Source of the DNA: a bacterium
GTDB taxonomy: Bacteria; Zhuqueibacterota; Zhuqueibacteria; Oceanimicrobiales; Oceanimicrobiaceae
Length of the DNA: 64,000 nt
Assembly (NCBI GenBank): GCA_037446635.1
Contig: JBBIIG010000003.1
Location: forward strand, 66,635-130,634
Direction: 5' to 3'
The stretch's first letter is position 1; every line of letters begins with the position of its first letter. The notes beneath the pieces are model-generated. The model was not told the DNA's origin. It was given only the letters and a program-made list of their open reading frames with translations, and made no database searches. Of this stretch, positions 9,933-30,956 are shown in pieces. The translations under genes and the position numbers were made by a program.

Positions 9933-10017
9933 TGGAGTGCTGGATCAATGAAGCGGCAACCACATGAATCCATAGACCCATCAATCTAGGCTGAATAGAG
10001 AGAAAAAAGGTTAGAGC

Positions 10018-10419
10018 ATGCGCTATCTCGTCAAAGCACGCATCAAATCGGGGAAGGCCGAACCCCTGCTGCGCGCCATCGAAACCGGCACGCTGGGTGA
10101 AGGCTCGGTTGCCGGCGATGAATATATTTACGATATGCAGCAGGCGCGCCAGTTGGAAGACGGCACAATCTGCTGGGTGGAAACCTGCTTTTGCCCGACG
10201 CCGCTCGCCGAAGAAACGCCGTATTGGGAAGAATATTTTGATCTTCTCAAAATCAAAAACGCCCACGACCCGCGCCGCTGCAAAGATTTGAACGGAAGCG
10301 AGCCCTGGGCCTGCTGCGATTGCGATTGCACCAAAAAGTTGGAGGAAAAGATGAAGGGTTGGGGGAAATCGTTTCTGGCGACCTTGGAAGCATCCGGCAA
10401 ATCGCCGAATTCAAAATAG
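10018..10419 (+). CDS. Hypothetical cysteine-rich protein
   Basis: 133-aa ORF with host-like codon use and CFC, WACCDCDC motifs. Confidence 0.7.
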   Translation: MRYLVKARIKSGKAEPLLRAIETGTLGEGSVAGDEYIYDMQQARQLEDGTICWVETCFCPTPLAEETPYWEEYFDLLKIKNAHDPRRCKDLNGSEPWACCDCDCTKKLEEKMKGWGKSFLATLEASGKSPNSK

Positions 10420-10421
10420 TT

Positions 10422-10742
10422 TCACTGCACGACCACCGCCGTTCCGCTGGCCGAGACCATCAACATGCCGTTGTTTTGACCCAGCACTTCGTAGTCGAGA
10501 TCGATGCCAACCACTGCGTTCGCGCCCAACTCTTGTGCGCGTTGTTGCAGTTCATCGAGCGCAATGTCGCGAGCATTTTGCAGCTCTTTTTCATAAGTGG
10601 CCGATCGCCCGCCGACGAGATCGCGGATGCCAGCGAACAGATCTTTGAAAATGTTCGCGCCCAGGATTGCCTCTCCAGCAACGATGCCGCAATACTTGGT
10701 GATGCGCTTGCCTTCGATGGTTGGGGTAGTGGTAAGTTGCAT
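10422..10742 (-). CDS. YbjQ / UPF0145 family protein
   Basis: [11 protein letters not shown]...[12 protein letters not shown]...GGRS...[12 protein letters not shown]...ASGTAV. SD GGAGG upstream of the ATG at 10742. Confidence 0.93.
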
Positions 10743-10756
10743 GGTTCCTCCCAATG

Positions 10757-11026
10757 TCAAGAATTTTGCTGACTACTGGCTTGGTTAATTTTTTCTTGAA
10801 CCCATAGGTTTAACAGAGTCTCTTCGCTAATTCCACGTTCTTCGGCGATCTGTCTAACCTTCAATGAAAGATGGCCGTCCAATGGGTAATACTTGCGTTG
10901 CGATTTAATCTTCACATCGAATTTCACTTCAGTCTGTTCTCCGAATTCAGTAGCATCATGTTCATCCCAAAACGCGCCTATTTCCTGATAAGTGCGAGCT
11001 TTTGAGATTGGTGTTTTACTTGACAT
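10757..11026 (-). CDS. CopG/BrnA-like antitoxin
   Basis: [14 protein letters not shown]...[20 protein letters not shown]. Overlaps the 3' end of a BrnT remnant. Confidence 0.75.
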
Positions 11027-11090
11027 ACTTTTTCCTTTCCTTTTTTGTCATCTCTCGTGCTGAAACGATGATAGCTTGTTTGTATAAACT
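11016..11090 (-). pseudogene. BrnT toxin C-terminal remnant
   Basis: Minus strand reads ...[21 protein letters not shown], the BrnT C-terminal motif. No recognisable upstream BrnT sequence. Confidence 0.7.
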
Positions 11091-15797: not shown

Positions 15798-17555
15798 ATG
15801 AAACAACGCTTAATTTGCCTTCTCTGCCTGACACTCGTCGCGGTTGCGCCGGCGCAGGAATTAGACTCGCCTTCCAAGCAACTTCAACAGCTCTTCAACG
15901 ATTACTGGGAATACACCCTCGAAGAAAATCCGCTGCTCGCTACCTCGCACGGCGATTTGCGCTACAACGACAAGTTGAGCGAAGCCGGTTTAGAGGCCAG
16001 CCGCAAAAGTTACGAAGCCGACCGCGCGTTTCTCGCTCGCATTCAACAGGTAGATCGCGCCGCCCTCTCTGCAGAGGATCAGCTCAACTACGATCTCTTC
16101 AAAGAGCAATTAGAGTGGCAAATCGAAGAGTTTCAATTCGGCAGCTATCTCGAAGCTGTCCACCAGCGCAGCGGCTTTCACCTTTTTCTACCTCGCTTCC
16201 ACGAACGGGTACCGCTGCACACTCGCAAGCACTACGAGGATTATCTCGCCCGTCTCCAATCCATTCCCACTTTGATTGCCGGCGTGACGGAATTGCTGCA
16301 GGAAGGGCTGCGCCAGGGAAGAACGCCGCCGCGGCTGGTGCTCGAAGCGGTTCCCCAGCAAATCGCAATGCTGGTGAATACGCCGGTCGAGGAATTCCCG
16401 CTCTACCACCCGTTTCTAAATTTCCCAGCGACAATTTCCAAACCCGATCAAAATACCTTGCGCCAGCGCGGAGAGAACATTTTAAAAAATGAGGTCTTGC
16501 CGGCGTTTGAACGCTTCGCCCAATTTTACAGAGACGAATTCATCCCCCAAGCCAAAACCGCAATCGGCGCCAGCCAACGCTACGCCGACGGCGAAAGGTT
16601 TTATGCCTTCCGGGTTCGGCGGTTCACCACCACGCACCTCACCGCCAAAGAAATTCACGAAATCGGTTTGAAAGAGGTGGAACGCATCAAAACGCGCATG
16701 TTGGAAATTATGAAAGAAACCAACTTCAGCGGCGGGTTTAGCGATTTCACCGAGTTTCTGCGCCGCGACCCGCAATTTTATTATTCTAAACCGGAAGACC
16801 TGCTCAGCGGCTACCGCGATATCTGCAAACGCATGGACGCCGAACTGCCGAAGCTCTTCGGCAAGCTCCCGCGCGCCCCGTACGGGGTGCGCGAAATCCC
16901 GGCCCACGAAGCGCCGCGCGCCACCACCGCCTACTACAACCAACCCACCGCCGACGGCACCCGGCCCGGCTGGTTTTACGCCAACACCTACGATTTGAAC
17001 AGCCGCCCGAAATATGAAATGGAGGCGCTGGCGTTTCACGAAGCCGTGCCCGGACATCATTTGCAAATTGCTCTGCAGATGGAATTGGAAAACGTGCCGA
17101 AATTTCGCACCCTGGCCAGTTACACCGCCTTTGTGGAGGGCTGGGGGCTTTACGCCGAAAGCCTCGGCAAAGAGGTGGGATTTTATACCAATCCCTACTC
17201 CGAGTTTGGGTTTCTTTCCTACGAAATGTGGCGGGCGCTGCGGTTGGTGGTGGATACCGGGATCCACGCCTTCGGCTGGTCGCGGGAGCAGGCCATCGAA
17301 TACATGTTGGCGAACTCCGCCCTCACTCGCACCAACGTGGAAAACGAAGTCGATCGCTACATCGCCTGGCCGGGACAGGCGCTGGCCTACAAAATCGGGC
17401 AGATGAAAATCCGCGAGCTGCGGACCCGGGCTGAACTGGAGTTGGGCGAAACATTTGATGTGCGCGCCTTTCATGATCTCGTACTCAGCGCCGGCGCGGT
17501 CCCGTTAGATATTTTGGAAAAAAGAATCCACGAGTGGATTGCAGCGCAAAAATAA
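15798..17555 (+). CDS. DUF885 family protein (putative exported metallopeptidase)
   Basis: Signal peptide, HEAVPGHHLQ, AFVEGWGLYAE, RLVVDTGIH and PGQALAYKIG. Confidence 0.93.
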   Translation: MKQRLICLLCLTLVAVAPAQELDSPSKQLQQLFNDYWEYTLEENPLLATSHGDLRYNDKLSEAGLEASRKSYEADRAFLARIQQVDRAALSAEDQLNYDLFKEQLEWQIEEFQFGSYLEAVHQRSGFHLFLPRFHERVPLHTRKHYEDYLARLQSIPTLIAGVTELLQEGLRQGRTPPRLVLEAVPQQIAMLVNTPVEEFPLYHPFLNFPATISKPDQNTLRQRGENILKNEVLPAFERFAQFYRDEFIPQAKTAIGASQRYADGERFYAFRVRRFTTTHLTAKEIHEIGLKEVERIKTRMLEIMKETNFSGGFSDFTEFLRRDPQFYYSKPEDLLSGYRDICKRMDAELPKLFGKLPRAPYGVREIPAHEAPRATTAYYNQPTADGTRPGWFYANTYDLNSRPKYEMEALAFHEAVPGHHLQIALQMELENVPKFRTLASYTAFVEGWGLYAESLGKEVGFYTNPYSEFGFLSYEMWRALRLVVDTGIHAFGWSREQAIEYMLANSALTRTNVENEVDRYIAWPGQALAYKIGQMKIRELRTRAELELGETFDVRAFHDLVLSAGAVPLDILEKRIHEWIAAQK

Positions 17556-17621
17556 TGTGGGCGCACAATTGGTGAGTGCATTAATTGCGCCAAATCCTGC
17601 GTAAAATTTTTATTTTTCAGC

Positions 17622-17650
17622 TTGACAAATTGCGAGCACTTTAGTATTAT
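17622..17650 (+). promoter_or_regulatory. Near-consensus sigma70 promoter of the serine protease gene
   Basis: TTGACA-17 nt-TATTAT with an AT-rich upstream element. Confidence 0.7.
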
Positions 17651-17714
17651 TTCCCCACTTTGTTTCCCACCTATTTATTCACAAAAACTTCTAACCAACT
17701 GCAAGGAGGAGGTT

Positions 17715-18782
17715 ATGAAGAAACCGTTTTATCGTTCCATGAACTGGATTTTGGGTTTCACGGCTGTGGCTCTGATCGTGACGCTGGTTTGGATTGGCTG
17801 CGGCGAAAAATACCAGACGCCCAGCGGCCCGGAGCAGCTTCAGGAGAACCTACTCAGTGCCGATAATCCCCAAGTCAAAGCTGTGATGGAAATTCAGAAC
17901 CGCCACACGAATGACCTCATGGCAAAAGCGGGGGTGGTTGGCGTCGGCACCGGGATGACAGAGGATGGCCGGCCGGCGATCGTCATTTTCACCACCGCTG
18001 AAACGCTGGCCAAGGGCGAACGGCTGCCGCTGGCGATTGAAGAGGTGCCGGTGGTCGTCGAGGTGACCGGCGAATTCAAAGCCCTGCGAGGTGGGGGCAG
18101 CAGCTTCGACACCACCATCAAGCACCGTCCGGCGCCGAACGGCGTGTCGTTGGGGCATCCCGACATCACGGCCGGCACACTGGGCTGCCTTGTCACCAAA
18201 AACAACACCATTTACATTTTGAGCAACAACCACGTGATGGCGGACGAGAACCAGGCCAGCATTGGGGATAACATTTTACAACCCGGGACTTTTGACGGCG
18301 GACAAGATCCTGCTGACAGGATTGCGACGCTCTCCGAATTCGAGACCATTATCTTTTCTACCAGCGCCAGCAACGTGATCGACGCGGCGATTGCCGACGT
18401 GGATAATGACGCCGACGTGACCGGCGCTACGGAACCGGCTGGTTACGGCAGCCCGCGCTCCAACCCGATCACTGCCGCAGTGGGTATGCGGGTGAAGAAA
18501 TATGGCCGCACCACCAAGCAAACAACCGGCCGCGTCAGCGCCATCAACGCCACGGTCAACGTTGGCTATTCGACGGGAGTCGCCCGCTTCGTCAACCAAA
18601 TCGTGATTGGCGGCGGCAGCTTCAGCGCCGGCGGCGATTCCGGCTCCCTGATTGTTGTAAATGGCGGCTCAAATGACCGCCGGCCAGTGGGGCTGCTATT
18701 TGCCGGCAGCAGCACCTCCACCATTGCCAATCCCATTGGCGCCGTTTTATCAGAATTTGGGGTGACGGTTGTTGGGGATTAA
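17715..18782 (+). CDS. Trypsin-like (Nal1-type) serine protease lipoprotein with N-terminal pro-domain
   Basis: SD AGGAGG, lipobox-like WIGC, AGTLGC, LSNNHV (His), IDAA (Asp) and GGDSGS (Ser). Confidence 0.85.
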   Translation: MKKPFYRSMNWILGFTAVALIVTLVWIGCGEKYQTPSGPEQLQENLLSADNPQVKAVMEIQNRHTNDLMAKAGVVGVGTGMTEDGRPAIVIFTTAETLAKGERLPLAIEEVPVVVEVTGEFKALRGGGSSFDTTIKHRPAPNGVSLGHPDITAGTLGCLVTKNNTIYILSNNHVMADENQASIGDNILQPGTFDGGQDPADRIATLSEFETIIFSTSASNVIDAAIADVDNDADVTGATEPAGYGSPRSNPITAAVGMRVKKYGRTTKQTTGRVSAINATVNVGYSTGVARFVNQIVIGGGSFSAGGDSGSLIVVNGGSNDRRPVGLLFAGSSTSTIANPIGAVLSEFGVTVVGD

Positions 18783-18812
18783 CTAATTTGTAAATCAGAG
18801 TGTGAAAAAATG

Positions 18813-18859
18813 AGGGAAGAGTTTCGGAGGTAATCTACAAGCTCTTCCCTTTTGTTTTT
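18813..18859 (+). terminator. Putative terminator between the protease and the small lipoprotein
   Basis: AGGGAAGAG / CTCTTCCCT stem followed by TTTGTTTTT. Confidence 0.55.
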
Positions 18860-18867
18860 GGTTTGAA

Positions 18868-19182
18868 ATGATGATTTCCAAAGTAATTCTCCCCATTCTG
18901 GCGGCGCTGACGATGACACTTGGCTGCACGCAGGACGCCGCTAAAGAGGATGCCATGCCGAAGAAAAGCATCGAAACCGTGCTAAAAGAACACACCGACG
19001 ATTTGATGGCTCTGCCGGGCGTGGTGGGTACCGCGCAAAGTTTATGCAAAGGCCAGCCCTGCATCAAAATTTATGTCAGTGAAATGACGGATGAACTGCA
19101 GCAAAAACTTCCGAAAACTCTTGAGGGATATTTAGTCGATGTTGAAGTGACCGGCGAATTTCGCGCGCTGCCCAAAAAGTGA
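18868..19182 (+). CDS. Small lipoprotein homologous to the N-terminal domain of the upstream protease
   Basis: Lipobox TLGC. HTDDLMALPGVVG...VEVTGEFRAL matches the protease segment HTNDLMAKAGVVG...VEVTGEFKAL. Confidence 0.85.
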   Translation: MMISKVILPILAALTMTLGCTQDAAKEDAMPKKSIETVLKEHTDDLMALPGVVGTAQSLCKGQPCIKIYVSEMTDELQQKLPKTLEGYLVDVEVTGEFRALPKK

Positions 19183-19183
19183 C

Positions 19184-20719
19184 TCACCAACTCACGCCAA
19201 CCTGACCAAAATAGCGGTGCAGCCCCTTCCTCGCCTCGAGATTGGTGGCCTCCGCCCACAAATCCACCGGGTTCAAATCGTCGGTCAAAACCGCGGCGTG
19301 GCTAATTTCCGGTACAAAGCGATTATCCCAGGCTCGATTTTGATGGAAAGCTGGAGTCTTCCCGTAATTCAAATCGCGGACACCGGGGTCGAGCGGTTGA
19401 ATGAACGTCAGCTCGTTTTGAGAAGCCAATAAAATGATGTTGCCAATCACCTCCGGCGCGTGAGAGAGTGGCAGCGCCAGCACATGTTCGAAATGCGGTT
19501 TGAGCGTCGCCGCCAGCGACCGCACTAAAATATGGTTCCAGCTTAGCGCCTCCACATTAATGGCCAAAATGCCGCCGGGTTTCAGCCGCGCCGCCGTCAA
19601 ACCAAACGATTCCTTCGTCACCAGGTGGAACGGAATCGAGCTGCTGCCAAAGGCATCCAGGACGATGAGATCATAAAGCTGGTCTTTCTCTTTTAAAAAT
19701 TTGCGGCCGTCCATCACAAACACCCGCGCCTCGGAAGAATCCAACCCGAAATATTCGTAGGCGACATCGGCGACCTCCTGGTCAATTTCAACGGCATCGA
19801 CGCGCCAACTGGCCTGCGCATAATTTTTCGCCACCGAACCGCCGCCCAATCCAATTAACAGCAACCGGCCCTGTTTTTCAAAAAAAAGCTTGGCAATATC
19901 CAGCACGGCAACATAAGGAAAAACAGAGCGATAACTTTCCAATTCGACGATGGAGTGAATGCCGCCATCGATTACAAAATGGCGGCCGTTCTCCGTATCC
20001 ACCACCCGCAACTCGGCGTAGGGACTGTGCCGAACCGCAATCAAGCCCTTCTCCAAATCAGCGCGCTGGCCCGGCGCTTTGGCAAACGCCAACACCGCCG
20101 CGCCCATCGCCAGCACCGAAATAAACGTCATCAATTTTGATTTTAAATGAAAGAGGAACCCCACTGCTGCCAGAATCAACAGCGCCGCGCCAATCGCAAA
20201 CGTCAAGCGCGCCACGCCAAAATTGGGGATGAAAACAAAGCCGGTGAGCAGCGCGGAAATCACGCTGGCAAGGGTTGAAAGCGCGTAGATATCGCCGGCG
20301 GTGCGGCCCACGACGTTGAGGCTGGCGGCGCGCACGCGGATGGCGTACGGGCTGACCATCCCCAGCAGGGTCAGCGGCGGCACGAACAGAATGAACGCGG
20401 CGGTCAACACCGCAAACCGCAGCCCCAGGGGCTCGGAGACCGCCAGCACCGGACGGGTCAGCCAGGGGATGAGCAGCGTCCAGGCGCCGGCGCCGGCCAC
20501 AATGTAGTAGAGCCGGGAAATTTTCGCTTCTTTATCCGCCCAGCGCCCGCCGATGGCGTAGCCGGCACTGAGCGCAATTAGCGTCACCGTGATCAGCGCC
20601 GACCACAAAAACAGGCTGACGCCGTAAAACGGCCCCAAAATGCGCGTGCCCAAAATCTCGATCGCCAGCACCGCGGCCCCGCAAATGAAAACGATGATAT
20701 ATAAAAACAAATGAGGCAT
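19184..20719 (-). CDS. Fused MFS-like membrane domain / spermidine synthase
   Basis: About 7 TM helices followed by the SAM-binding motifs LLIGLGGG, VEID, DLIVLDAF and LTDD. Confidence 0.9.
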   Translation of the reverse strand: MPHLFLYIIVFICGAAVLAIEILGTRILGPFYGVSLFLWSALITVTLIALSAGYAIGGRWADKEAKISRLYYIVAGAGAWTLLIPWLTRPVLAVSEPLGLRFAVLTAAFILFVPPLTLLGMVSPYAIRVRAASLNVVGRTAGDIYALSTLASVISALLTGFVFIPNFGVARLTFAIGAALLILAAVGFLFHLKSKLMTFISVLAMGAAVLAFAKAPGQRADLEKGLIAVRHSPYAELRVVDTENGRHFVIDGGIHSIVELESYRSVFPYVAVLDIAKLFFEKQGRLLLIGLGGGSVAKNYAQASWRVDAVEIDQEVADVAYEYFGLDSSEARVFVMDGRKFLKEKDQLYDLIVLDAFGSSSIPFHLVTKESFGLTAARLKPGGILAINVEALSWNHILVRSLAATLKPHFEHVLALPLSHAPEVIGNIILLASQNELTFIQPLDPGVRDLNYGKTPAFHQNRAWDNRFVPEISHAAVLTDDLNPVDLWAEATNLEARKGLHRYFGQVGVSW

Positions 20720-21008
20720 GGCCCCTCCTCTCCTGATTTGACGTTTTCCATCGAGTATTTTTTAAACAGCGGTGGAGAATTTAGGTTTTTATCTTTAAAA
20801 AAACAACTCGGCGCTCTCTGCAGTTTAGGAAAACCTAAGACCACTTTGCGACTGAATTCCAGCCAGATGAAGTATAACCAATCAGCACCAGTCAATTTGG
20901 AAATTGCACTCTTCGGCGGCTCGGTTCATTTTCCTGGCATGGACATTGTAATCACATAACCCACGTTTACGACAACAGGTTTTGACAACATAATCGGAGG
21001 TTACAATC

Positions 21009-21782
21009 ATGAATCGACTTACAAATTTGATGGCGCTGCTGGCCGTGCTGGCCTTGATTGGCTGCAGTAAAAGTCCAACCATTCCGGACGGAATGGGGCG
21101 GCTGGAAATCGGCCTCACCGATGCCCCAGTGGATTTTGAGGCTGTGAACATCACCTTTTCGGAGATCAGCGCACATATTGACAGTGTGTGGATAAACCTG
21201 CGCGTCGATCCGGTTACCGTAAATTTGCTGGAATTCTCCAACGGCCAAACTTTTGAGCTGGCCGCCGAGAACGTGCCGGCCGGTCATTATACTCAGATTC
21301 GGCTCAAAATCACCGCTGCGGAGGTGGTCGTGGGCGGCCAGGTGTACCCGGTTACTGTACCCAGCGGTGCGCAGACGGGCTTAAAACTCGTGGGCCAGTT
21401 TATTATTGTTGCGGGCGAGACGCTGGCGCTGGTGCTCGATTTCGACGCTCAGCGCTCGATTGTTCGGACTGGGCCGCCGCAAAATCCTTTCGGCTATATT
21501 TTAAAGCCAACCATCCGAGTGATCGGCAAAGCCGATAGCGGCGCGATTTCCGGTGTCGTCAGTAACCCGCAGAACGCGCCAGTGGCCTACGCCATCGCCA
21601 GCGGCGACACAATAGCCGCCACGGTGGTCAAAAAAGATAATGGCAAATTTGTGTTGGGATTTTTGCCGGCCGGACTCTATGCGGTGAGCATCGCCGATAC
21701 GCTGAATCAATCGTATCGCAATAATCAGGTTTTGGTGGCCGTCGGCGCCGAAACCAACTTGGGAACGGTGACGCTGCAGTGA
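21009..21782 (+). CDS. DUF4382 domain lipoprotein
   Basis: Lipobox LIGC, LTDAP, VPSGAQTGLKL, LDFDAQRSIV and YILKPTIR. Confidence 0.85.
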   Translation: MNRLTNLMALLAVLALIGCSKSPTIPDGMGRLEIGLTDAPVDFEAVNITFSEISAHIDSVWINLRVDPVTVNLLEFSNGQTFELAAENVPAGHYTQIRLKITAAEVVVGGQVYPVTVPSGAQTGLKLVGQFIIVAGETLALVLDFDAQRSIVRTGPPQNPFGYILKPTIRVIGKADSGAISGVVSNPQNAPVAYAIASGDTIAATVVKKDNGKFVLGFLPAGLYAVSIADTLNQSYRNNQVLVAVGAETNLGTVTLQ

Positions 21783-21805
21783 CCACTAACGCATCAACCA
21801 CAAAC

Positions 21806-21836
21806 AAAAAAGCCCGATTGCAAAATCGGGCTTATT
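21806..21836. terminator. Bidirectional terminator between convergent genes
   Basis: AAGCCCGATT / AATCGGGCTT stem with A/T tracts. Confidence 0.7.
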
Positions 21837-21855
21837 AATTGGCGTTGGTCGAGAT

Positions 21856-22524
21856 TTAGTTGGTGCGAAATTCTTCGTATAGCGACAGCACGGCGGGCAC
21901 GTAGTTTTGAGTTTCTGAATAGAGAACGCCGTGCGCTTTGTTTTGCGCCAACCACATTTCCGCGCGCCGGTTGCCGCCGTTGTAAGCAGCCAGCCCGCCA
22001 TCGATATCGTACAACTCGATGAGGCTGGAAAGATAGCGGCAGCCGAGCCGGATGTTCAAAACCGGATCAAAGAGCACGTCATCGGCAGAAGTCCATTCGA
22101 CGCCTTCGATTTTCGCGAGAAACTTGCCGGTGGCTGGCATCACCTGCATCAGCCCCATGGCGCCGGCGGGCGAAACCACCTGCGGGTCCCAGCTAAACGC
22201 CGATTCGTGAGTGATGGTCGCGCAAATCAGATCCACATCGAGGTTGTTGTACTTGAAGCTGGCTTCGGTAATTTCATTGGCAATGGCGAGCTTGCGCTCA
22301 AACGGCATTGCCGGGTTATACCGATTTAATACTAACAGCACCTTGTTGATGTTGTCGGTTCGCAGCTTCTCAATTTGCGCCACTGAATTCAAAGTATTTA
22401 CCTGTTCAGAAAAATTCGCTATCTGTTTTCTCTCAACTGCTGTTTTTTGATAGACAACTAATCCAACCACGACCAAGGCAGCCAGTAGGGTCAATGATTT
22501 GGTTAACTGCAAACAACCTCCCAT
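21856..22524 (-). CDS. Lytic transglycosylase (SLT domain), membrane anchored
   Basis: ITHESAF, SPAGAMGLMQVMPATG, NIRLGCRYL, LAAYNGG and ETQNYV. Confidence 0.92.
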   Translation of the reverse strand: MGGCLQLTKSLTLLAALVVVGLVVYQKTAVERKQIANFSEQVNTLNSVAQIEKLRTDNINKVLLVLNRYNPAMPFERKLAIANEITEASFKYNNLDVDLICATITHESAFSWDPQVVSPAGAMGLMQVMPATGKFLAKIEGVEWTSADDVLFDPVLNIRLGCRYLSSLIELYDIDGGLAAYNGGNRRAEMWLAQNKAHGVLYSETQNYVPAVLSLYEEFRTN

Positions 22525-22679
22525 CTTTAAGTTACTAATTGCTCCCCCGTTTCTGTACTATATCTGCGCCCTTCTACGCAGTTTTTGAAAATTGGGTTTC
22601 CATCTTTTTTAATTTAGTACGATCATGCAACCACTAAGCTACTATTTTCGTGAGCTTTGTGGCTTGGCGGGAAAAGCTG

Positions 22680-25571
22680 TCAATAATCCAGCCCGATGGA
22701 AAAAAAGGTGGACGGTTCGCCGTTTTCGTGCTTAAAGGGAAAATCCCACCGCAGCACCAGTAATCCACCTAAGTTAAAGCGGATGCCCAACCCATAGGAT
22801 GTGCGAATGTCGTCAAAATTGAACGTGCGATTCAATTCTCTGCCGGTAGCAGGGTCGCGGCCTTCCACTCCCCAGGCATTAGCGGCGTCAAAAAAGGCGA
22901 CCAACGTCAGGAAGTCGTACTGAAGCGGCAAGAACGGAAACATGGGAAATCTGAATTCAATGTTCTGAAAAAAGATTTCGGTGCCGGCCAGCTCGCCAAA
23001 ATCCACGCCGCGAAAGGTGAAGGGCCCACCGATTCGGAACAGGCGCTCGTCGCGCCCGAAAATGCTGCCGGCGGTCAGGCGGTAGGCGATGGAGTAGCGT
23101 GGAACGCTGATGGGAATATATTTACGATAATCGGCCAGCAGCAACGTGTATTGCAAATCGCCGACGTTTTGCTGGGCGGTGAAGCGCGCGCGGGTTCCCC
23201 AGATGGGGGCCGCGATGCCCCAGGCCGCGGAGTCGCGGACTAAAGAAGCGTCGAAGCTGGTGAAAATGGCGCTGCCCGAACTCCGCCCGGTGACTTGTCC
23301 GGCAAAATTGAAGGAGATGACATCCTGGCTGACAAAATAAAGGTTCGAACCCAACTCGATGCGGGTGAAGGTGTCAAACGGCAACGAGGCGCCGCCGCCG
23401 ATACCGCGGAAGACCTGGCTGACGATTTCCCCCTCATCGGGCGAGGTGAACACACCGAAGTCGTCACGAAATTGGAAGCCCGATAACGCCCAATTGAGCC
23501 GGCGTTTTTGATTATAATAGGTGGCGATGATGGTGGATTCGAGGGGGTCGCCATAAAGCGCGGCTTGTAGAATCAGGGTCTTGTCGCCTAACATATCGCT
23601 AAACAGAAAGGCGGTCTGGCCGGCGAAACCGACGTTGCTGGCAAAGGCGCCGCCGCCCACAATCAAATCCGGAGTCAGCTTGGAGCGGTAACCCGCCAGT
23701 TGAAACTCCGAGCTATCGGGCAAAGAATATTGCCGGTATTTTTCGTTGGCGTCGGGCAACGACTCAAGTACCAGGCTCACTGGCGGTTCGACTTTTACTT
23801 TTTCATATTCATCTAATGTGTAAATGTACCAGCCGGCATTGGAGAAAGCGCTGAAAGCCAACCGTCCGGTCTCCGTGGCGAGGCTGATGGCGGGGCTTTC
23901 GGTGATAATTCCGGCGACCCCCGTTACGAAATTGGTGATTTGAAACAGCTCGCGGGTGTCCAACTTCATCGAATAAATATTGGGGATGCCGTTCATATCG
24001 GAAACGAAGAAAATTTCATCGCCGGTTTTGGACCACACCGGGTTGATGTGATTGCCGCCGGTTTCGGTCAGAAGTTCGGTTTTGCGTGTCTCCAAATCTA
24101 TCAGGGCGATATTGTAGTCGCCGAAAATGAGACTATCCACGTTGGTGCGGGGGCCGCGGTCGGTAGTAAAAGCGATTTTCAGGCCATCCGGCGACCATTG
24201 CGGGTGGAGATGCGAATAGCGATCGTCGGTAATTTTCTGCAGATCCGTGCCGTCACTATTGGCGACGTAGAGATTTGAAATGCCACCCTCTAAGCCGGAG
24301 AAAACCAGCCGGTCGCCGCTCGGGGACCAACTGGGCGCGGCCATGCCGGTGAGATTTTTAAACGAGAGCTTTTGGATGACCTTTCGCCGCTTGGCGTCCA
24401 CAATGTAAATGGCGTCGTTGGCGCCCGATTTGGCCACGAACGAAAATTTCTGGCCATCCGGCGACCAGTTCATCGCGGTGTCAAAATAGCGCAGCACTTC
24501 ATAGCTTTCGCTGGTGCCGCTGGTGACGATTTTGTGTTTATCTTTTTTATTATCGACCTCACGCAGGAACATGTGCAGGGTATAATTTTCATCGCCAATA
24601 TAGGCGATGTCCTCGCCATTCGGCGCAATCGCCGGCACAATATTGAGGCTGGTACAATCCACGCACGGGTCGTTCAAAGGCTTCGCTACTTCGCCGGGTT
24701 TTTTCAAGAACACATTTTGCGGCAAGTAGCGGCTGCGGGCGTCATCTTGCCAGCGCTTGGAAAGCTCTTCCAAATCTAAGCCGGTGTGAGCTTTGAAGGC
24801 TCGGTTCAAGTCGCCAGTGGCGCGAGCGGTTTTGAAAATTCGGCCGACCACCTCTTTGCCATCCCCGACGTAAAACCAGATGGCCTGCCCCATGCGATAG
24901 ACGCGAATATCGAACACGTACGTCATCTCCGGGATCGTGAGCAGGGTGTTGTTCAGAACCGCATCGCGCATCCACATGCGGGTGATGTTGTCCATACCCA
25001 CGGAAAGATACTCGGCCATGCCTTCGATAAACCATAACGGAGGGTTGAAGCGCCGCACCAGATCCGCTGGGCCTTCGGCCAGCAAAATATCAAACTGAAA
25101 TGCGTGCACCATTTCGTGGGTCAACACGTGAATGAATTGCGCATACGAGCCGGTGATGGGGAGAATCATTCGCCCTTTGAGGGATTCGGTGACGCCCTGT
25201 GTGCCTTCGCTGATATAACTTTGAATGGCGTTGGTCTGTTGAAAGTCGTTGTGTGAAGCGTAGAGCAAAAGCGGTATTTTTTGCTTGAATTTATAATCCA
25301 ACACTTCGCTGAGATAGGCATAGGAGCGCTCGGCAATCTGCGCGGCGTCCATGGCGGCCTGGCGCTCTTCTTCATAAAAATGAATGTCGAAGTGTTCGGT
25401 GTGAATGACCGACCAATTGAAGTTTTTATATTGGACTTTATTTTTGCCAAAGCCGAATATATCGCCAAATTGCGCGTAAGCGGGCGATGAAATTAGCAAA
25501 AAAAGCAACGGCGCGCTCCAAAGAAGATTCCTCCACCTCGAGTCGATTCTGCAATTTAACCGATATTGCAT
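22680..25571 (-). CDS. Fusion of HExxH peptidase-like domain, TolB-like PD40 propeller and Omp85/BamA-type barrel
   Basis: Signal peptide, THEMVH and WFIEGMAEY, repeated WSPDG/WSPSG, and a C-terminal barrel ending FFSIGLDY. Confidence 0.85.
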   Translation of the reverse strand: MQYRLNCRIDSRWRNLLWSAPLLFLLISSPAYAQFGDIFGFGKNKVQYKNFNWSVIHTEHFDIHFYEEERQAAMDAAQIAERSYAYLSEVLDYKFKQKIPLLLYASHNDFQQTNAIQSYISEGTQGVTESLKGRMILPITGSYAQFIHVLTHEMVHAFQFDILLAEGPADLVRRFNPPLWFIEGMAEYLSVGMDNITRMWMRDAVLNNTLLTIPEMTYVFDIRVYRMGQAIWFYVGDGKEVVGRIFKTARATGDLNRAFKAHTGLDLEELSKRWQDDARSRYLPQNVFLKKPGEVAKPLNDPCVDCTSLNIVPAIAPNGEDIAYIGDENYTLHMFLREVDNKKDKHKIVTSGTSESYEVLRYFDTAMNWSPDGQKFSFVAKSGANDAIYIVDAKRRKVIQKLSFKNLTGMAAPSWSPSGDRLVFSGLEGGISNLYVANSDGTDLQKITDDRYSHLHPQWSPDGLKIAFTTDRGPRTNVDSLIFGDYNIALIDLETRKTELLTETGGNHINPVWSKTGDEIFFVSDMNGIPNIYSMKLDTRELFQITNFVTGVAGIITESPAISLATETGRLAFSAFSNAGWYIYTLDEYEKVKVEPPVSLVLESLPDANEKYRQYSLPDSSEFQLAGYRSKLTPDLIVGGGAFASNVGFAGQTAFLFSDMLGDKTLILQAALYGDPLESTIIATYYNQKRRLNWALSGFQFRDDFGVFTSPDEGEIVSQVFRGIGGGASLPFDTFTRIELGSNLYFVSQDVISFNFAGQVTGRSSGSAIFTSFDASLVRDSAAWGIAAPIWGTRARFTAQQNVGDLQYTLLLADYRKYIPISVPRYSIAYRLTAGSIFGRDERLFRIGGPFTFRGVDFGELAGTEIFFQNIEFRFPMFPFLPLQYDFLTLVAFFDAANAWGVEGRDPATGRELNRTFNFDDIRTSYGLGIRFNLGGLLVLRWDFPFKHENGEPSTFFSIGLDY

Positions 25572-25714
25572 GTCTCCTCCTTAAAAATTGCAAATGAAAT
25601 CTACTAAGAAAAACTGATAAATCAAAATATTATTCCAAAATTTAACAACGTTGTCTTTTATACGCCTTTGGTAAATGTTTTATTCCAAAAGCAGAATGAA
25701 GGGCCCTCAAAAAG

Positions 25715-25760
25715 AATCGGGGTTGTCCAAAAATTTATTTTTTGAACAACCCCGATTTTT
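25715..25760. terminator. Long hairpin, probable terminator of 25808-26014
   Basis: AATCGGGGTTGT / ACAACCCCGATT. Confidence 0.55.
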
Positions 25761-25807
25761 ATTAATGCAATTGTAATTGGCTATTACCGAATTTTCCGCT
25801 TACGTGA

Positions 25808-26014
25808 TTACGCCAACGCAATCTGGTTCTGGTTCAGCTTCTGCGAGTAACGGATTCTAAACTCCTCAGCGTAACCTTCTGCAAACCAAATCATCGCTGC
25901 TTCTTGAAACGACACCTGAACCTGATTTTGGTGCGCCAGCGTTGCACGGAAGCTTTCGATTTCCATCAATTGCAGGGACATGAAGTCCGATTGTTTAGAT
26001 TTTTTTTCGCTCAT
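25808..26014 (-). CDS. Small hypothetical protein
   Basis: 68-aa ORF preceded by SD AGGAGA. Pattern QLMEIE...VSFQEAAMIW...YAEEFR. Confidence 0.65.
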   Translation of the reverse strand: MSEKKSKQSDFMSLQLMEIESFRATLAHQNQVQVSFQEAAMIWFAEGYAEEFRIRYSQKLNQNQIALA

Positions 26015-26364: not shown

Positions 26365-27510
26365 ATGAGCACGAGAGCCGTTTTGGAAACATTGGATTCA
26401 GGGCTGAGCCAATCGCACGACTACCAAAACAAAAAGGACGAAACGGAAGAAAAAGTGCGGGAGTACTTTCTCGCCAAAAAAGGTGCGGACCCCACCGACA
26501 CTGCAATGGAACACCATTTCATCCAGAAAGCCTTCGCGAAAACCAATCTCGACACCGCCGCTCTGGCTTCCTATAGCAAAAGCTATTTGGAAGAAGCGTT
26601 CTACGAGCTCATCAACCTCGCGCTGTTTTCACGCTTCCGGCAAAAGACCGACGACGCCAATAGCAATTTCTCCAAAGCCAACCAAATTGCTGCTTATTTG
26701 AACAACCCGTTCATAACCGCCCATTATGACTTTGCCCTCGTTTTGGATGGCGAGCCGTTGAAAAAAAAGCTCAAAGCCGAACGATGCTATGAGTTGGTGA
26801 ACCAAACATTGGCCAGCGATAAGGACATGGGCGTTGAATTGATTGGTACCGGATTATTTTTGGCCATCGACATTCAGGATGAAAAGCGCCGCCTCGATTT
26901 CCTCTCCAAAAGCCAGTACGTGCTCTACGAACTGGAAAGCCTGCAACATGTCGCCATGAGCCTCGGCCTCTACCTGCTCGCCAACACAACGGGGTACGAA
27001 ACGCTCACCGGCTGGACCAAATTCCACAACGGCAACATCTGGCTGGATTTCGAGAACTATTTGTCCGCGCGCGACGAATTTGAAAGCGCCTTAGACTGGG
27101 CGCTCGACAGCGGCTTCCCCTACGCGGTGATGACGCTTTACGAACGTTTAGCCCTGGCCAACGCGCGGCTTAAGAAACCGAATCTCGCCGAAAAATATTA
27201 TCACGACTCGCGGCAGGCCGCGGCCTCAACTGAAATCAAACCCGAATTGGTTATGAAAAACGAAGTGCGCTGCCTCATCGGTTTGGGAAATCTCAACTAT
27301 CAAAAAGCCGTGGGCCAAAGCGGCAATGACAAAGAAAAACAATGCCGCGCCGCGGATCTGCTTTTCAAACAGGCGCTGAACCTAACCAACCAAATAAACT
27401 ACGCTTCCAACCGCAAGGTCGCGCTCACTAACTTGAGCGAGCTGTACAAACTCTGGCGCGGCCCCAACGATCCGGATGCGCAGCACTACATGGATCTGGC
27501 AAATCAGTGA
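26365..27510 (+). CDS. TPR-like helical protein, paralog of the N-terminal region of the downstream CHAT protein
   Basis: SD GGGAGG, helical repeats, and segments that align by eye with 27580-30657. Confidence 0.75.
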   Translation: MSTRAVLETLDSGLSQSHDYQNKKDETEEKVREYFLAKKGADPTDTAMEHHFIQKAFAKTNLDTAALASYSKSYLEEAFYELINLALFSRFRQKTDDANSNFSKANQIAAYLNNPFITAHYDFALVLDGEPLKKKLKAERCYELVNQTLASDKDMGVELIGTGLFLAIDIQDEKRRLDFLSKSQYVLYELESLQHVAMSLGLYLLANTTGYETLTGWTKFHNGNIWLDFENYLSARDEFESALDWALDSGFPYAVMTLYERLALANARLKKPNLAEKYYHDSRQAAASTEIKPELVMKNEVRCLIGLGNLNYQKAVGQSGNDKEKQCRAADLLFKQALNLTNQINYASNRKVALTNLSELYKLWRGPNDPDAQHYMDLANQ

Positions 27511-27544
27511 TCGCCATCGCGCGAGACACGGCTACAAAAAATGG

Positions 27545-27573
27545 TTGAAAAATAATTTCGTAGGCGTTATCAT
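27545..27573 (+). promoter_or_regulatory. Putative leaderless promoter of the CHAT gene
   Basis: TTGAAA-17 nt-TATCAT, then 6 nt to the ATG at 27580. No SD. Confidence 0.5.
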
Positions 27574-27579
27574 TCGCCT

Positions 27580-30500
27580 ATGAAACTTCCATCACCCAGG
27601 CATTATCAAAAAATTTTACTGGCGGTCCTGATTTTGGCTTTGCTGGCAATCTATTTCTGCAAAAGGCAGCCCCTTGATTTGGGAAAAATCGAGGCAGATC
27701 TGGCCGCGGGCGATTCACTCGACGTTGAAACTTTCGGCGACATCGTTCAACATTTTGAGAAATACGATCTGCCCGATAGCACTTACGCGCGCATCAACGC
27801 CGAATTGCAGCACAATCAATTCATCAACCTCCGCGACACGGCGCTTGCTCACCGCTTGCAGATTTTGAAAGATTCAACGATGAGTTTGGCTGCCAAAACC
27901 TCTTTTTTTAAAGATAAAAAGTATGCGCTGTTTTCTCTAATCACAAAGTTGTTCAACCACTGTTTATATCTGAAAAAATTCGCGCCGGGAAAAAAAAGTG
28001 AGTTGGACGAAAGCCGGAAAGCCGCCGAAACCGCGATCGCGATTTACGACGACCCACACGAAAAAAACTTTCTCCTCTCTCAAAGAGATTTTTATGAAAC
28101 CCTGCCGCCGGAACATCTGGAAACCAGATTGCGTCTCGAATACTTAACAACACAAAGCCACGGGCTATCGGAATCGGATCCAAACCGTGCTCTGCAGCAT
28201 CTCGGCGCCGGTTTGAAGCTGGCGCGAATTCTGGGCGATCAAAAGAGGAAAATCGATCTACTCACAAACCTGCAATTCATTCTTTATAACAACTTCGGCT
28301 TCACGGAAATCGGGCTGGGGTTTGGCAAACGTCTTTTAGCCGAGAGCGATTCCATCGGCTATATCGTAAAAACCGGAGGGATCAAATTTCAAAACGGCCA
28401 CTGCCACCTGGATAAAGGCCAGTTTCCCAAAGCGTTCGATGAATACAAATACGCGCTCGAACTTTACGAAAATTATAACTACCCCCCTATGATTATTCGC
28501 ATGCATGAACGCATGGGCGTGGTGCTCCGCCGCATGGGGGAATTCGGAAAGGCCATTGAAAACTACGAAAAAATCTTTCAGCGCGAAAAAGAATTTAATG
28601 AAACCTCCGCGGAAATTGATTACTTAATCGGCCGCGGTTTGGTTTATGCGGAAATGGGCAAAAACGTCGCCGCGGATAGTTTTTATCAGCAGGCGCTGGG
28701 TCTCGCCAAAATATCAAGGGATCCAACCGAGCGCGCCATCGTCTTAGGCAATCTCGGAAACCTGTACCTCGATATCGGGCATTACGAAAAAGCTCGAGCA
28801 GTTACAGAGGAAGCCTATGCGCTGATCGATTCAGTAGGCAACCCCCACACCAAAATCTCACTATCGAATATTCTGATTGAAATATTAGCGGAGACCAACC
28901 AGTACGAAGACGCCAAATTATTGGCGGAAAAAACCCTCCGCAAACTCACGAAACATCAGTTCGGACTGCTGGAGGCAGACTCGTATTTGTGCATTGGCAA
29001 ATTGCACTTTCAAATCGGCGATTGGCAGAAGGCATTTGAGCTATTTGAGCAAGCCCGCGCTATCTCCGAGAAAAAGGGGTTCATCGTCAACCACATTGAA
29101 TCGCTGACGATGCTGGCCGAAACTTGCCGCCGCCAAGCCCAACTCAAAAGCGCGACAGAATTCATCAACACAGCTTTAAAGTTGTGCAAGCGATATCCAT
29201 TTGCCGATCCAAAATGGCACGCCTACTTCGGGCTGGCGCGCATTGAGCGCGACACCGGCGACATCGCCGCGGCGGAAGCAAATTTCGATGAAGCAATTGG
29301 CATCGTCAAAACCCTCGCCGCCGAAATCAAAGATACCGAAGGCCGCTCCAATTTCTCGGAAAAAATCCAGCCGATATTCGAAGAAATGGTGCTGCTGCAG
29401 TTGGCGCAAAATGACAACGACGACGCGCATTTTTATGCTGAACTGGAGCGCGCCCAAGTGTTCAAAGTTCTGCTGCAACAAAACTTCACCGGCAAAGCCG
29501 CGCCAGAATCCATCACGGTCAGCACCTTCCAACTGGGGAAAAAAGAAAACCCCCTGTCCTTTACGCTGCCGAATTTGCAGTCGCTGCTGCGCGCCAACGA
29601 GCTGGTGGTGGAATATGAATTGACCGAAAGCCTTTTGATTATCTGGGTGATTGGCCGCAACACATTTGCGGTTGCAACAAAGACAATCAGCCGCAATACG
29701 ATTAACAATTGGGTTAAAGATTTCCGAACCTGCACAAATTTAGACACGTTGTACAATCGCGCCAAAGTCGCCGAAAATTACACCAAGATTGAATCGTTGT
29801 GCAGGCGTTTTTATGACGAACTCATCTCCCCAATTGCTGAGCACTTAAGCGATGCCGGACTGATCTATTTCATCCCCGATGAAACCTTAAACTATCTGTC
29901 CTTCGCCGCTTTGATGGACAACGCCGGAGAATTTTTGATCCGCCGCCACCCCATCGTCATGATGCCCAGCGCGGAAATTCTTTATCAATTGCTTTCATCG
30001 AAAACCAGCAGCACGGTTGGCTCAAATACTTTGCTGGTGGCGGCGACCAACCCGGATTTGGAATATTCATTTGTGGAAGCGCGAGTGGTGGCGAAAAAAT
30101 TTGCAGAAGTCGATTCGCTCATTGGAGAGGGTAAAACCGAACTCGAGTTGAAGCATAAACTCACAACCAAATCTTTTGACGTCATATTGTTATCGCTGCA
30201 CGGTCGAGTGAATGAAAAGCGTCCCCATCTGTCATCGTTGGTTTTAAATAGGGCCATTGCAGAAAGCAGCGCCGTGATGGATAACGATGCTCAACTGATG
30301 CTCTCCGAGATTCAACCATTGCCGTTGGACGCCACCAATTTAGTTTATCTCTCCGCCTGCGAAAGCGCTTCGGGAAGGCTCTATCGCGGCGAGGGCATCG
30401 TGGGCTTGCAGCGGGCGTTCCTGATTGCCGGCGCAAGCTCGGTCATCGCCAATCTTTGGAAAATAGATGACAAGAGCGCCCAAAAACAGACGGAGGCGTT

Positions 30501-30657
30501 TTTTGACATTTGGCTGCAAAAGAAAATTTCGAAAGCCCAGGCCCTGCAGGAAGCGCAACTCAATCTCATCGACAATTTGAAAAACAACCCAGTTTACAAG
30601 GGCAAGGCCCACCCCTGTCTGTGGGCGTCGGTTACGTTAACGGGAATTCCAAATTAA
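27580..30657 (+). CDS. TPR-CHAT (caspase-like cysteine protease) protein with N-terminal signal/anchor
   Basis: Hydrophobic N-terminus ending AIYFC, many TPRs, and CHAT motifs IPDETLNYLSFAAL, LSLHG (His), LSACES (Cys), GEGIVGLQRAFLIAGA and HPCLWA. Confidence 0.93.
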   Translation: MKLPSPRHYQKILLAVLILALLAIYFCKRQPLDLGKIEADLAAGDSLDVETFGDIVQHFEKYDLPDSTYARINAELQHNQFINLRDTALAHRLQILKDSTMSLAAKTSFFKDKKYALFSLITKLFNHCLYLKKFAPGKKSELDESRKAAETAIAIYDDPHEKNFLLSQRDFYETLPPEHLETRLRLEYLTTQSHGLSESDPNRALQHLGAGLKLARILGDQKRKIDLLTNLQFILYNNFGFTEIGLGFGKRLLAESDSIGYIVKTGGIKFQNGHCHLDKGQFPKAFDEYKYALELYENYNYPPMIIRMHERMGVVLRRMGEFGKAIENYEKIFQREKEFNETSAEIDYLIGRGLVYAEMGKNVAADSFYQQALGLAKISRDPTERAIVLGNLGNLYLDIGHYEKARAVTEEAYALIDSVGNPHTKISLSNILIEILAETNQYEDAKLLAEKTLRKLTKHQFGLLEADSYLCIGKLHFQIGDWQKAFELFEQARAISEKKGFIVNHIESLTMLAETCRRQAQLKSATEFINTALKLCKRYPFADPKWHAYFGLARIERDTGDIAAAEANFDEAIGIVKTLAAEIKDTEGRSNFSEKIQPIFEEMVLLQLAQNDNDDAHFYAELERAQVFKVLLQQNFTGKAAPESITVSTFQLGKKENPLSFTLPNLQSLLRANELVVEYELTESLLIIWVIGRNTFAVATKTISRNTINNWVKDFRTCTNLDTLYNRAKVAENYTKIESLCRRFYDELISPIAEHLSDAGLIYFIPDETLNYLSFAALMDNAGEFLIRRHPIVMMPSAEILYQLLSSKTSSTVGSNTLLVAATNPDLEYSFVEARVVAKKFAEVDSLIGEGKTELELKHKLTTKSFDVILLSLHGRVNEKRPHLSSLVLNRAIAESSAVMDNDAQLMLSEIQPLPLDATNLVYLSACESASGRLYRGEGIVGLQRAFLIAGASSVIANLWKIDDKSAQKQTEAFFDIWLQKKISKAQALQEAQLNLIDNLKNNPVYKGKAHPCLWASVTLTGIPN

Positions 30658-30679
30658 AACAAACTCCAGGAGGTGAATT

Positions 30680-30757
30680 ATGCACCCAATGAACCGTTCC
30701 TTTGACGCCGATGTGATCGACCCGCGCGACGGCCCCGGCCCGGATCCCATTCGCTAA
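30680..30757 (+). CDS. 25-aa peptide MHPMNRSFDADVIDPRDGPGPDPIR (not in ORF track)
   Basis: SD AGGAGGTG at 30668-30675. The ATG follows 22 nt after the CHAT stop, and a terminator-like stem lies downstream. Confidence 0.65.
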   Translation: MHPMNRSFDADVIDPRDGPGPDPIR

Positions 30758-30810
30758 GCGCGGTCATCAAAACAAAAGCCGACTTTTACGAACCTAAATA
30801 AATAATCCCC

Positions 30811-30876
30811 CGCAGAGGTCGCTCAGAGCGCAGGGGCTCCTGAAAAAACTCTGCGTTCTCAGCGCTCTCTGCGGTT
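30811..30876. repeat. REP-like inverted repeat (CGCAGAG...CTCTGCG family)
   Basis: CGCAGAGGTCGCTCAGAGCGCAG ... CTCTGCGTTCTCAGCGCTCTCTGCGG. A related element lies at 35321-35404. Confidence 0.6.
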
Positions 30877-30956
30877 ATGAATTAAAGTCGGCTTTCTTTT
30901 TTTGCCTCTCTGCGTCTTTGCGTGCGCTCTTCTTTTGGGAGAATTCGCCCAACTGC

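Follow-up and report, generated by a model that had tools for sequence, protein, structure and literature searches.

A conserved TPR-CHAT protease cassette with a candidate peptide ligand and a likely unlinked sigma/anti-sigma partner in a family of KSB1 bacteria

We compared 21 genomes of one family of candidate-division KSB1 bacteria and found in 12 of them, in a patchy distribution, a cassette encoding a soluble TPR protein (A), a TPR-CHAT protease (B) and a small peptide (C), which, judged by sequence comparison, form a conserved three-gene unit. The output partner of the cassette is likely an orphan pair of genes for an ECF sigma factor and a zinc-finger transmembrane anti-sigma factor, located elsewhere in the genome. 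We propose that the cassette may be the trigger half of a split, peptide-gated signalling system for a stress sigma factor, working by the steps set out below, a reading whose chances we place a little short of even. The hydrophobic anchor of B, the absence of an anchor from A and the orphan pair are all features additional to those of the original prediction made for this DNA.

Table 1. Features of the cassette, its 3′ flank and the unlinked pair. Positions are those of the window, i.e. the whole 64,000-nucleotide stretch of DNA analysed, except in the last row.
Feature	Position	Strand	Description
gene A	26365..27510	+	381 aa, soluble TPR protein; no protease domain, no export signal
gene B	27580..30657	+	1025-aa predicted TPR-CHAT (clan CD) protease, N-terminal membrane anchor, H874 + C927
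peptide-gene ribosome-binding site	30667..30674	+	from sequence; strong AGGAGG-type
gene C, 25-aa peptide MHPMNRSFDADVIDPRDGPGPDPIR	30680..30757	+	motif D-P-x-x-G-x-G-x-x-P; no export signal
long hairpin, likely terminator region	30769..30901	.	inverted repeat I8; z -6.98
orphan ECF sigma / zinc-finger transmembrane anti-sigma pair	G000:C84:11188-11988 and 9953-11086	minus	on another contig than the cassette

The cassette and its chromosomal site

The three co-oriented genes of the original prediction all lie on the plus strand at the positions given for them (Table 1). They are neighboured by genes for an outer-membrane-type protein, a transglycosylase, a solute symporter and an M16 peptidase, and the long hairpin sits between the peptide gene and a convergent transporter gene. 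A scan for sigma-70 promoters and terminators yielded nothing above chance (5 promoter-like sites vs. 5.2 expected). We ruled out a divergent small ORF (25808-26014) as a fourth part because it is present in 19 of 20 family genomes, whether or not they carry the cassette.

The cassette is, as predicted, richer in AT than its surroundings (GC content of 49.4% vs. 53.5% for the window), but only mildly so, since 8.7% of 1001 equally long genome segments have a GC content as low. Its site is fixed among housekeeping genes in every genome where context was available, which argues that the cassette is not a defence island; together with the only mildly low GC content, this led us to reject an island origin. 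Some genomes without the cassette have a clean empty site. The B proteins of cassette genomes are only 27-38% identical to B of this locus. In G018, A is internally shortened and the peptide reduced to 18 residues, while the cassette-negative genome G019 has a remnant of the B 3′ end at the site. At homologous loci, the small ORF and the upstream paralogue recur; the pattern said to count against the idea, CHAT genes lacking both neighbours, was not what we found.

No gasdermin, cas or sigma genes occur among the genes flanking the cassette. The absence of such partners noted earlier is thus confirmed for the immediate neighbourhood; the orphan sigma/anti-sigma pair is found on another contig. 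A genome-wide Pfam search for gasdermins was blank here and equally blank in every control genome; RAMP matches occur in reading frames of 272-759 aa that lie on a different contig. In PADLOC, only B gave matches, which were generic for TPR and weak for the CHAT region; A, the peptide and the sigma pair gave none.

The protease, its TPR paralogue and the peptide

B contains TPR repeats and a CHAT domain (PF12770, 169 bits vs. a cut-off of 24), and the two catalytic residues noted earlier, H874 (LSLHG) and C927 (LSACES), show no variation among the 14 homologues aligned. In a larger alignment of 53 rows H874 is again invariant and C927 at least 90% conserved, consistent with B being a predicted CHAT (clan CD) protease with an intact His874/Cys927 dyad. 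The best structural match to B in Foldseek was separase (E 1.8e-16), with Csx29 (E 2e-16) and chains of DdvA (8rot, E 1.4e-13) also matching. Asp767, invariant in the 14-row alignment, occupies what we take to be the position at which separase binds the P1 Arg, and a basic P1 residue is likely preferred by B. The N-terminus is strongly hydrophobic in 14 of 14 homologues, with an anchor at about residues 12-26 preceded by some 11 residues; no zinc-finger match was obtained for B. We predict that B is exported and faces the periplasm. Lipobox-like signals were read by eye in some B orthologues. Four further CHAT genes are present in the same genome.

A is indeed a paralogue of B devoid of a protease domain, matching B residues 86-396 (26% identity, E 3e-21; profile-profile probability 100%). 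Its predicted fold is an all-helical TPR superhelix (pLDDT 96.8), nearest to the TPR domain of LGN and to RapH (E 2.6e-4 for RapH), and a hydrophobic N-terminus is missing in 18 of 18 rows. In 35 of 36 genome pairs, A was better conserved than the corresponding region of B (mean identity 39% vs. 29%), suggesting that A is under stronger constraint. Because its nearest folds are those of peptide-binding TPR proteins and it appears strongly constrained, we count A in favour of a peptide-gated model. Homologues of A were found in this family only, and an Atlas search with A returned only generic TPR clusters.

The tiny ORF with a strong Shine-Dalgarno sequence also withstood comparison. Its ribosome-binding site, start codon and motif D-P-x-x-G-x-G are shared by 12 genomes and by a metagenome contig, and in each of the 12 loci aligned a purine-rich site precedes the ATG, indicating that the 25-residue ORF is more than a chance reading frame. 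A peptide profile built from 11 of the 12 matching genomes gave one match per genome in 12 of the 21 family genomes (E 4.8e-6 or better), compared to a best match of only E 0.027 in the remaining 9; the match in G001, which was held out, lies directly past the 3′ end of the B gene, at a contig start. Among the 21 genomes, the peptide occurs solely where the cassette does. In the 7 motif copies compared, DPRDGPG is retained via synonymous changes (including CGC, CGA and AGA for Arg). The gene lies 3′ of B in 9 genomes and between A and B, directly after A, in 3, and has therefore been kept through rearrangement. The peptides are 25-29 residues long, apart from that of G018, and their N-terminal half is not conserved. 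Arg is found two residues past the invariant Asp in 8 of 12 rows, with Pro, Asn or Gly in other orthologues. None of the 12 peptides has a signal-like hydrophobic stretch, and their net charge ranges from 0 to -4. Just one of nine peptides looked up was present in the protein collection; the peptide has been overlooked by gene callers. We consider it very probable that the peptide is functional in the A/B/sigma system. An RRNPP-like switch within a single compartment does not account for the predicted separation of B from A and the peptide, which would reside in another compartment.

The unlinked sigma/anti-sigma pair and its possible control

The orphan pair is present in 11 of 12 cassette-positive vs. 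2 of 9 cassette-negative genomes (Fisher p 0.002, for genomes that are not independent). Both cassette-negative genomes with the pair, one of them G019, belong to one genus; in G003 the pair accompanies an empty cassette site, and G018 is the only cassette genome that lacks it. The pair forms a clade of its own in a quick tree (13 rows, SH-aLRT 89). In relatives, the pairs were viewed with about 1.5 kb on each side, the anti-sigma gene running to the contig end in G016 and G020. The loop that follows the membrane helix of the orphan anti-sigma factor contains a basic residue in 12 of 12 cases (Arg in 11, Lys in 1), and in 10 the next residue is Gly or Ser (by eye), while some CHAT-linked anti-sigma loops have His or Met in place of Arg. 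An RNA 3′-phosphate cyclase gene follows the orphan anti-sigma gene in 4 of 12 loci, and the genome encodes M50-family intramembrane proteases. B probably acts on the orphan anti-sigma factor. A mirror test of B against this factor in 8 genomes (Spearman 0.36, partial 0.74, permutation p 0.0006) was not counted, because related genomes share distances and the control gene had an average identity of 82%.

In KSB1, related TPR-CHAT genes are often found next to sigma and anti-sigma genes of the same kind. They are usually followed by a gene for a small membrane protein of DUF5676/holin_4-like type, with an N-terminal tail rich in D, G and P and often repeated. Of the 7 tails of one clade, 4 contain D-[PS]-x-x-G, compared to 50 of 6492 background ORF starts. 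The peptide profile gave no match at E 0.01 or better to DUF5676-like tails of other families, so that kinship between peptide and tails rests on position, composition and this five-residue motif. B and the motif are all that the split cassette and the linked clusters have in common. The tails are often poly-proline and free of Arg, and the motif-bearing tail is predicted to be cytoplasmic (positive-inside rule, by eye), next to a cytoplasm-facing metallopeptidase-like protein.

In the model that we propose, membrane-anchored B would cut the unlinked anti-sigma factor outside the inner membrane, in its basic loop, and a second cut of the RseP type would then free the ECF sigma factor. Gating would likely fall to the peptide, as a ligand of the N-terminal TPR region of B, the sign of its effect also being presumed. 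A, a cytoplasmic copy of this region, would hold the peptide in the cytoplasm, and B would fire only once the peptide reached the periplasm. Binding of the peptide to the TPR region common to A and B is a candidate interaction for which we see the chances as evenly balanced. A complex prediction for B residues 56-1025 and a 30-residue stretch of the reading frame of the closest peptide orthologue gave a score of 0.02 (mark 0.32), which we count neither for nor against binding. Several observations weigh against the model: export is predicted for B, whereas A and the peptide lack a signal for it and the cassette encodes no exporter; the peptide profile does not reach the DUF5676-like tails of other families; co-occurrence inside one family can mirror shared descent (as G018 and G003 illustrate); some CHAT-linked anti-sigma loops carry His or Met; and any of the four other CHAT genes could serve the orphan anti-sigma factor.

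A narrower and rather unlikely version is a membrane-breach tripwire, with the peptide in the cytoplasm and the sensor protease across the inner membrane, on its outer face. Peptide and protease would meet only when the membrane is holed or kin lyse, thereby eliciting an ECF sigma response. The peptide may be free and A-bound here, and tethered to the inner face by the DUF5676-like protein in related clusters. If this were true, a caspase-like receptor would be reading the peptide as a bacterial damage signal, and the peptide would be a first candidate for the signals of periplasmic TPR-CHAT proteins. The broader peptide-gated model offers a testable set of one protease, a 25-residue candidate ligand, a soluble copy of the presumed binding region and a candidate substrate from co-occurrence; if the peptide gates B, these would make up a peptide-switched caspase-like enzyme and a sigma circuit with trigger and output in separate loci.

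Alternatively, the peptide could be a securin-like pseudo-substrate, or a substrate, of the catalytic site of B that sets its resting state, with A as chaperone or carrier. The Arg of the commonest motif would fit the basic P1 likely for B, and the fold nearest to B is that of separase, which securin inhibits according to a passage of PMC11506125. However, this Arg is not kept in all orthologues nor in many of the related tails, A is the most conserved part yet has no catalytic domain, and the compartment problem persists; we judge this explanation improbable. We are similarly doubtful that A and the peptide are a cytoplasmic arm that never meets B, tuning for example the released sigma/zinc-finger complex or providing feedback, while B senses some other periplasmic signal. 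A and the peptide do share a predicted compartment, their genes are adjacent in 3 of 12 genomes and the tail in related clusters is also placed in the cytoplasm beside the peptidase-like protein, but homologues of A turned up in this family only, and clusters devoid of A do carry motif-bearing tails after their CHAT genes, so that A cannot be the older partner of the motif.

The suggestion of self-contained or island-like defence fared less well, given the fixed housekeeping site and the unlinked pair as likely output. A toxin-antitoxin-like module, in which B is toxic once active and is kept in check by A and the peptide, with descent as the sole reason for the co-occurring sigma pair, would account for the patchy cassette and clean empty sites; CHAT proteases do act in defence (portions of PMC10028731 and PMC11506125), and the cyclase gene after the orphan anti-sigma hints at a damage response. 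We nonetheless hold it to be very unlikely in view of the site, the only mildly low GC content, the absence of an adjoining effector and the PADLOC results. Finally, it is barely credible that the peptide is a decaying, functionless remnant of a tail-bearing membrane protein, even though its gene occupies the position of the tail-protein gene and its N-terminal half has diverged, since motif, start, ribosome-binding site and length are kept between genomes whose B proteins differ so widely, through synonymous codon changes and relocation of the gene.

Comparison with known systems

No published description of this split arrangement was found in a search largely confined to the main text of freely available articles, nor, within the same scope, were papers on DUF5676, on KSB1 bacteria with a CHAT protease or on the KSB1 CHAT clusters. 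The peptides of RRNPP systems such as Rap-Phr carry export signals and are re-imported, and their receptors carry an output domain. The cassette resembles them in having a TPR superhelix gene, whose product matches RapH, with a small peptide gene nearby. Unlike them, it encodes a peptide free of any hydrophobic export stretch, a TPR protein (A) without an output domain and a protease for which export is predicted. Gasdermin-associated CHAT proteases are unlike B in that no gasdermin adjoins the cassette. Separase, as B, joins a TPR-like superhelix to a clan CD protease and is controlled by an extended partner, securin, but this system is eukaryotic and cytoplasmic, and entry of the peptide into the active site of B is conjecture.

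In the type III-E craspase (Cas7-11, Csx29, Csx30, CASP-sigma), a ligand-gated TPR-CHAT protease cuts an anti-sigma factor and frees sigma, as described in sections of PMC10028731. Csx29 acts in the cytoplasm under the control of Cas7-11 and RNA, whereas B is predicted to be membrane-anchored. The likeness of Csx29 to B is one of fold; the family score fails the cut-off (23.1 bits vs. 300 for model NF041237), and Cas7-11, Csx30 and Csx31 are not adjacent to the cassette.

In the DdvA-DdvS system of Myxococcus xanthus, according to passages of PMC11506125, an ECF sigma factor is held by a zinc-binding transmembrane anti-sigma factor, the periplasmic TPR-CHAT part of DdvA is proposed as the first protease, before RseP, and the activating signal had not yet been found. 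The candidate partners here are likewise a sigma and a zinc-finger transmembrane anti-sigma factor, and the model of B matches DdvA chains. DdvA, however, combines anti-sigma and TPR-CHAT in one chain, while B is a separate protein whose candidate anti-sigma factor is unlinked. The cassette further includes a free peptide and a soluble duplicate of the TPR part, and no CBASS or CRISPR genes adjoin it.

The sigma/anti-sigma/DUF5676-peptidase/CHAT/DUF5676-tail clusters of KSB1 share with the cassette the CHAT subfamily, the sigma and anti-sigma families and a D/G/P-rich segment encoded after CHAT. Neither the peptidase-like gene of those clusters nor the membrane portion of their tail protein is present in the cassette of this family. 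The sigma pair is linked there and unlinked here, and only here has A been added.

A conserved cassette at a fixed chromosomal site

All three open reading frames of the original prediction were borne out, on the forward strand and at the positions listed in the table. They encode a TPR protein (A), a TPR-CHAT protease (B) and a short peptide (C).

Features of the cassette and its neighbourhood (window positions)
Feature	Position	Strand	Remarks
Gene A	26365-27510	+	381 aa
Gene B	27580-30657	+	1025 aa
Gene C	30680-30757	+	25 aa; strong ribosome-binding site ahead
Small divergent ORF	25808-26014	-	68 aa; conserved; often a second similar ORF behind
Inverted repeat	25709-25763		strong, 25 nt, terminator-like; downstream of the small divergent ORF

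Of the family's 20 other genomes, 10 contain A, which is absent from the two other genomes of the order; searching the protein collection with a profile of A gave 15 clusters. Those relatives that have names belong to candidate division KSB1 or are unclassified MAGs. Collecting homologous loci had been proposed as a check on the prediction, and in these the pair was kept, a B orthologue following A in 10 of 10 A-bearing genomes (in G016 A lies in two pieces on separate contigs, and in G011 B runs into a contig end), and the peptide was found in 12 of 21 family genomes. The cassette is flanked on one side by a transglycosylase gene, a large outer-membrane-type gene and the small divergent ORF, and on the other by a solute symporter and/or M16 peptidase gene. 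In six of the nine cassette-negative genomes the small ORF directly adjoins the peptidase or symporter, in another (G019) a fragment of B's last 50 residues is retained at the site, and two have different neighbours there. This pattern fits a single gain with subsequent losses rather than a mobile island. The stretch had been called AT-rich; its GC content is indeed low (49.4%), but only mildly so, with 8.7% of 1001 genome windows equal or lower. The small divergent ORF was rejected as a part of the system, since it occurs in 19 of 20 family genomes; a family search with it gave no match over the cut-off, and we presume that it resembles DUF4032-like small helical proteins.

Manual inspection turned up the peptide in 11 genomes and on one metagenome contig, with the consensus M-x(n)-D-P-R-D-G-P-G-x-D-P, in which D14 and G20 never vary and P15, G18 and P23 hardly do. 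In 12 of 12 cases the ATG has a purine-rich site ahead of it, and synonymous codons differ among the seven tabulated DPRDGPG copies. The profile built from these 12 sequences matched 12 family genomes once each (E 4.8e-6 or better), including a held-out match in G001 just past the 3' end of a B gene that lies at a contig start. The best E values in the remaining nine were no better than 0.027, and across the phylum (167 genomes) only two further genomes matched, weakly (E 5e-4 or worse). The gene lies after B in nine genomes and between A and B in three; in the window a long hairpin follows it. The protein collection contains one of nine peptide sequences looked up. By these criteria the peptide behaves as a gene, and it is very improbable that it is vestigial.

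Protease and compartments

B contains both TPR repeats and a CHAT domain, and the claim of an intact His/Cys pair held, H874 and C927 being invariant in 14 of 14 homologues. Its predicted structure (pLDDT 91) matches separase, Csx29 and DdvA, and the likewise invariant Asp767 presumably lies at the place where separase binds Arg. The 10 complete cassette B proteins form one clade (FastTree support 99). On one metagenome contig (L053:9215-12290) the B orthologue is broken near residue 300, by assembly error or as a pseudogene, with A and the peptide intact, and G020 carries another close homologue of B, with a lipobox-like signal, on a 3.4-kb contig (L113, G020:C454) whose shortness hides the genes around it. 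A, for which a TPR superhelix is predicted (closest structures, LGN TPR and RapH), aligns to B residues 86-396 and is better conserved than that N-terminal TPR region of B (39% vs. 29% identity; A higher in 35 of 36 pairs).

A strongly hydrophobic N-terminal stretch was found in 14 of 14 B homologues (Kyte-Doolittle maximum 2.3-3.5), some with lipobox-like signals by eye, in none of 18 A proteins (at most 1.0) and in none of 12 peptides. As only B has such an N-terminus, a periplasmic placement is predicted for B and a cytoplasmic one for A and the peptide. This split, which the original prediction missed, is one that every model must explain.

Sigma factors linked to CHAT proteases

More distant B-like genes were compared at 23 loci (20 fetched, four others and contig C49 of the window's genome, minus two short ones of the 20, omitted from the tree). 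In most, an ECF sigma factor and a zinc-finger/membrane-helix/TPR anti-sigma lie upstream of the CHAT gene, and many also hold a helical protein and a DUF5676/holin_4-like protein that carries a fused metallopeptidase-like domain (HExxH by eye). The usual gene after CHAT encodes a membrane protein of 112-165 aa with a D/G/P-rich N-terminal tail. The tail varies by clade (DPxSGPPP-like, poly-proline or Gly/Pro/Asp-rich) and frequently comes as two or three repeats. D-[PS]-x-x-G occurs in 4 of 7 tails of one clade vs. 0.8% of background ORF starts; since the peptide profile, run against the phylum genomes, did not detect the tails, kinship between peptide and tails is only suggested. This cluster, with its exported TPR-CHAT protein, is widespread in KSB1 (G000:C49 about 17209-25649, L133; L045-L048; L114-L131), and a literature search gave no paper that mentions DUF5676. 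The anti-sigma loop residue is Arg in most systems, but in some clades (anti-sigma genes of L117, L119, L121, L124, L125 and L130; L153) it is His or Met, which may mark CHAT proteases of other cleavage preference.

Profiles of the sigma and anti-sigma proteins of these clusters detected two full-length pairs in the genome that holds the window: one belongs to the CHAT-linked C49 cluster, the other is an orphan on C84, a contig with no CHAT gene. The C84-type anti-sigma forms a separate clade (13 rows; quick tree, SH-aLRT 89) and is present in 11 of 12 cassette-positive vs. 2 of 9 cassette-negative genomes (Fisher p 0.002, or 0.003 with like congeners merged, though the genomes are kin). Both negative genomes with the pair belong to one genus, and one has the B remnant; the sole positive genome without it is G018, in which A is shortened and the peptide has 18 aa. 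In 12 of 12 C84-type anti-sigmas, Arg or Lys stands in the loop that follows the membrane helix, and M50 proteases are encoded in the genome. An RNA 3'-terminal phosphate cyclase gene follows the orphan anti-sigma at 4 of 12 loci, making RNA repair a possible sigma-controlled output; in the window's genome it overlaps the anti-sigma gene end (C84:8857-9969, L132), with the same order in G001, G009 and G012. This genome has further CHAT genes at C25:40549-46843 and C52:18788-23769, both adjoining sigma-like and anti-sigma-like genes by eye, and at C80:4998-8300, whose product has a hydrophobic helix at its end; the RAMP-family genes at C27:9242-14970, part of a multi-subunit CRISPR locus, are not linked to the cassette.

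Beyond gene conservation and co-occurrence, we infer each step of the mechanism. Most likely, B would act as the first protease in a regulated intramembrane proteolysis cascade on the orphan anti-sigma. Because the linked clusters share with the cassette only B and the D/G/P motif, and A is a better-conserved copy of B's N-terminal TPR region, the motif may bind that region, with A as a cytoplasmic sink or carrier. The boldest reading, a tripwire in which peptide and B would meet only upon membrane breach and so trigger the ECF sigma response, seems to us unlikely. Equally doubtful are a pseudo-substrate role of the peptide and a purely cytoplasmic arm of A and the peptide, which their shared predicted compartment would permit. 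A self-contained defence module is less probable still; PADLOC gave only generic matches on the cassette.

Comparison with known systems

The literature searched gave no description of an exported CHAT protein accompanied by a soluble TPR duplicate and a free peptide. A regulated intramembrane proteolysis cascade has been proposed in which fused DdvA is the first protease (PMC11506125), and Csx29 frees CASP-sigma (PMC10028731). The cassette resembles DdvA-DdvS and the craspase sigma arm, as described there, in its putative working, but is a member of neither. Judged from its genes, it is a real, conserved and apparently undescribed form of CHAT-sigma signalling, for which it offers a concrete candidate ligand and a candidate substrate.
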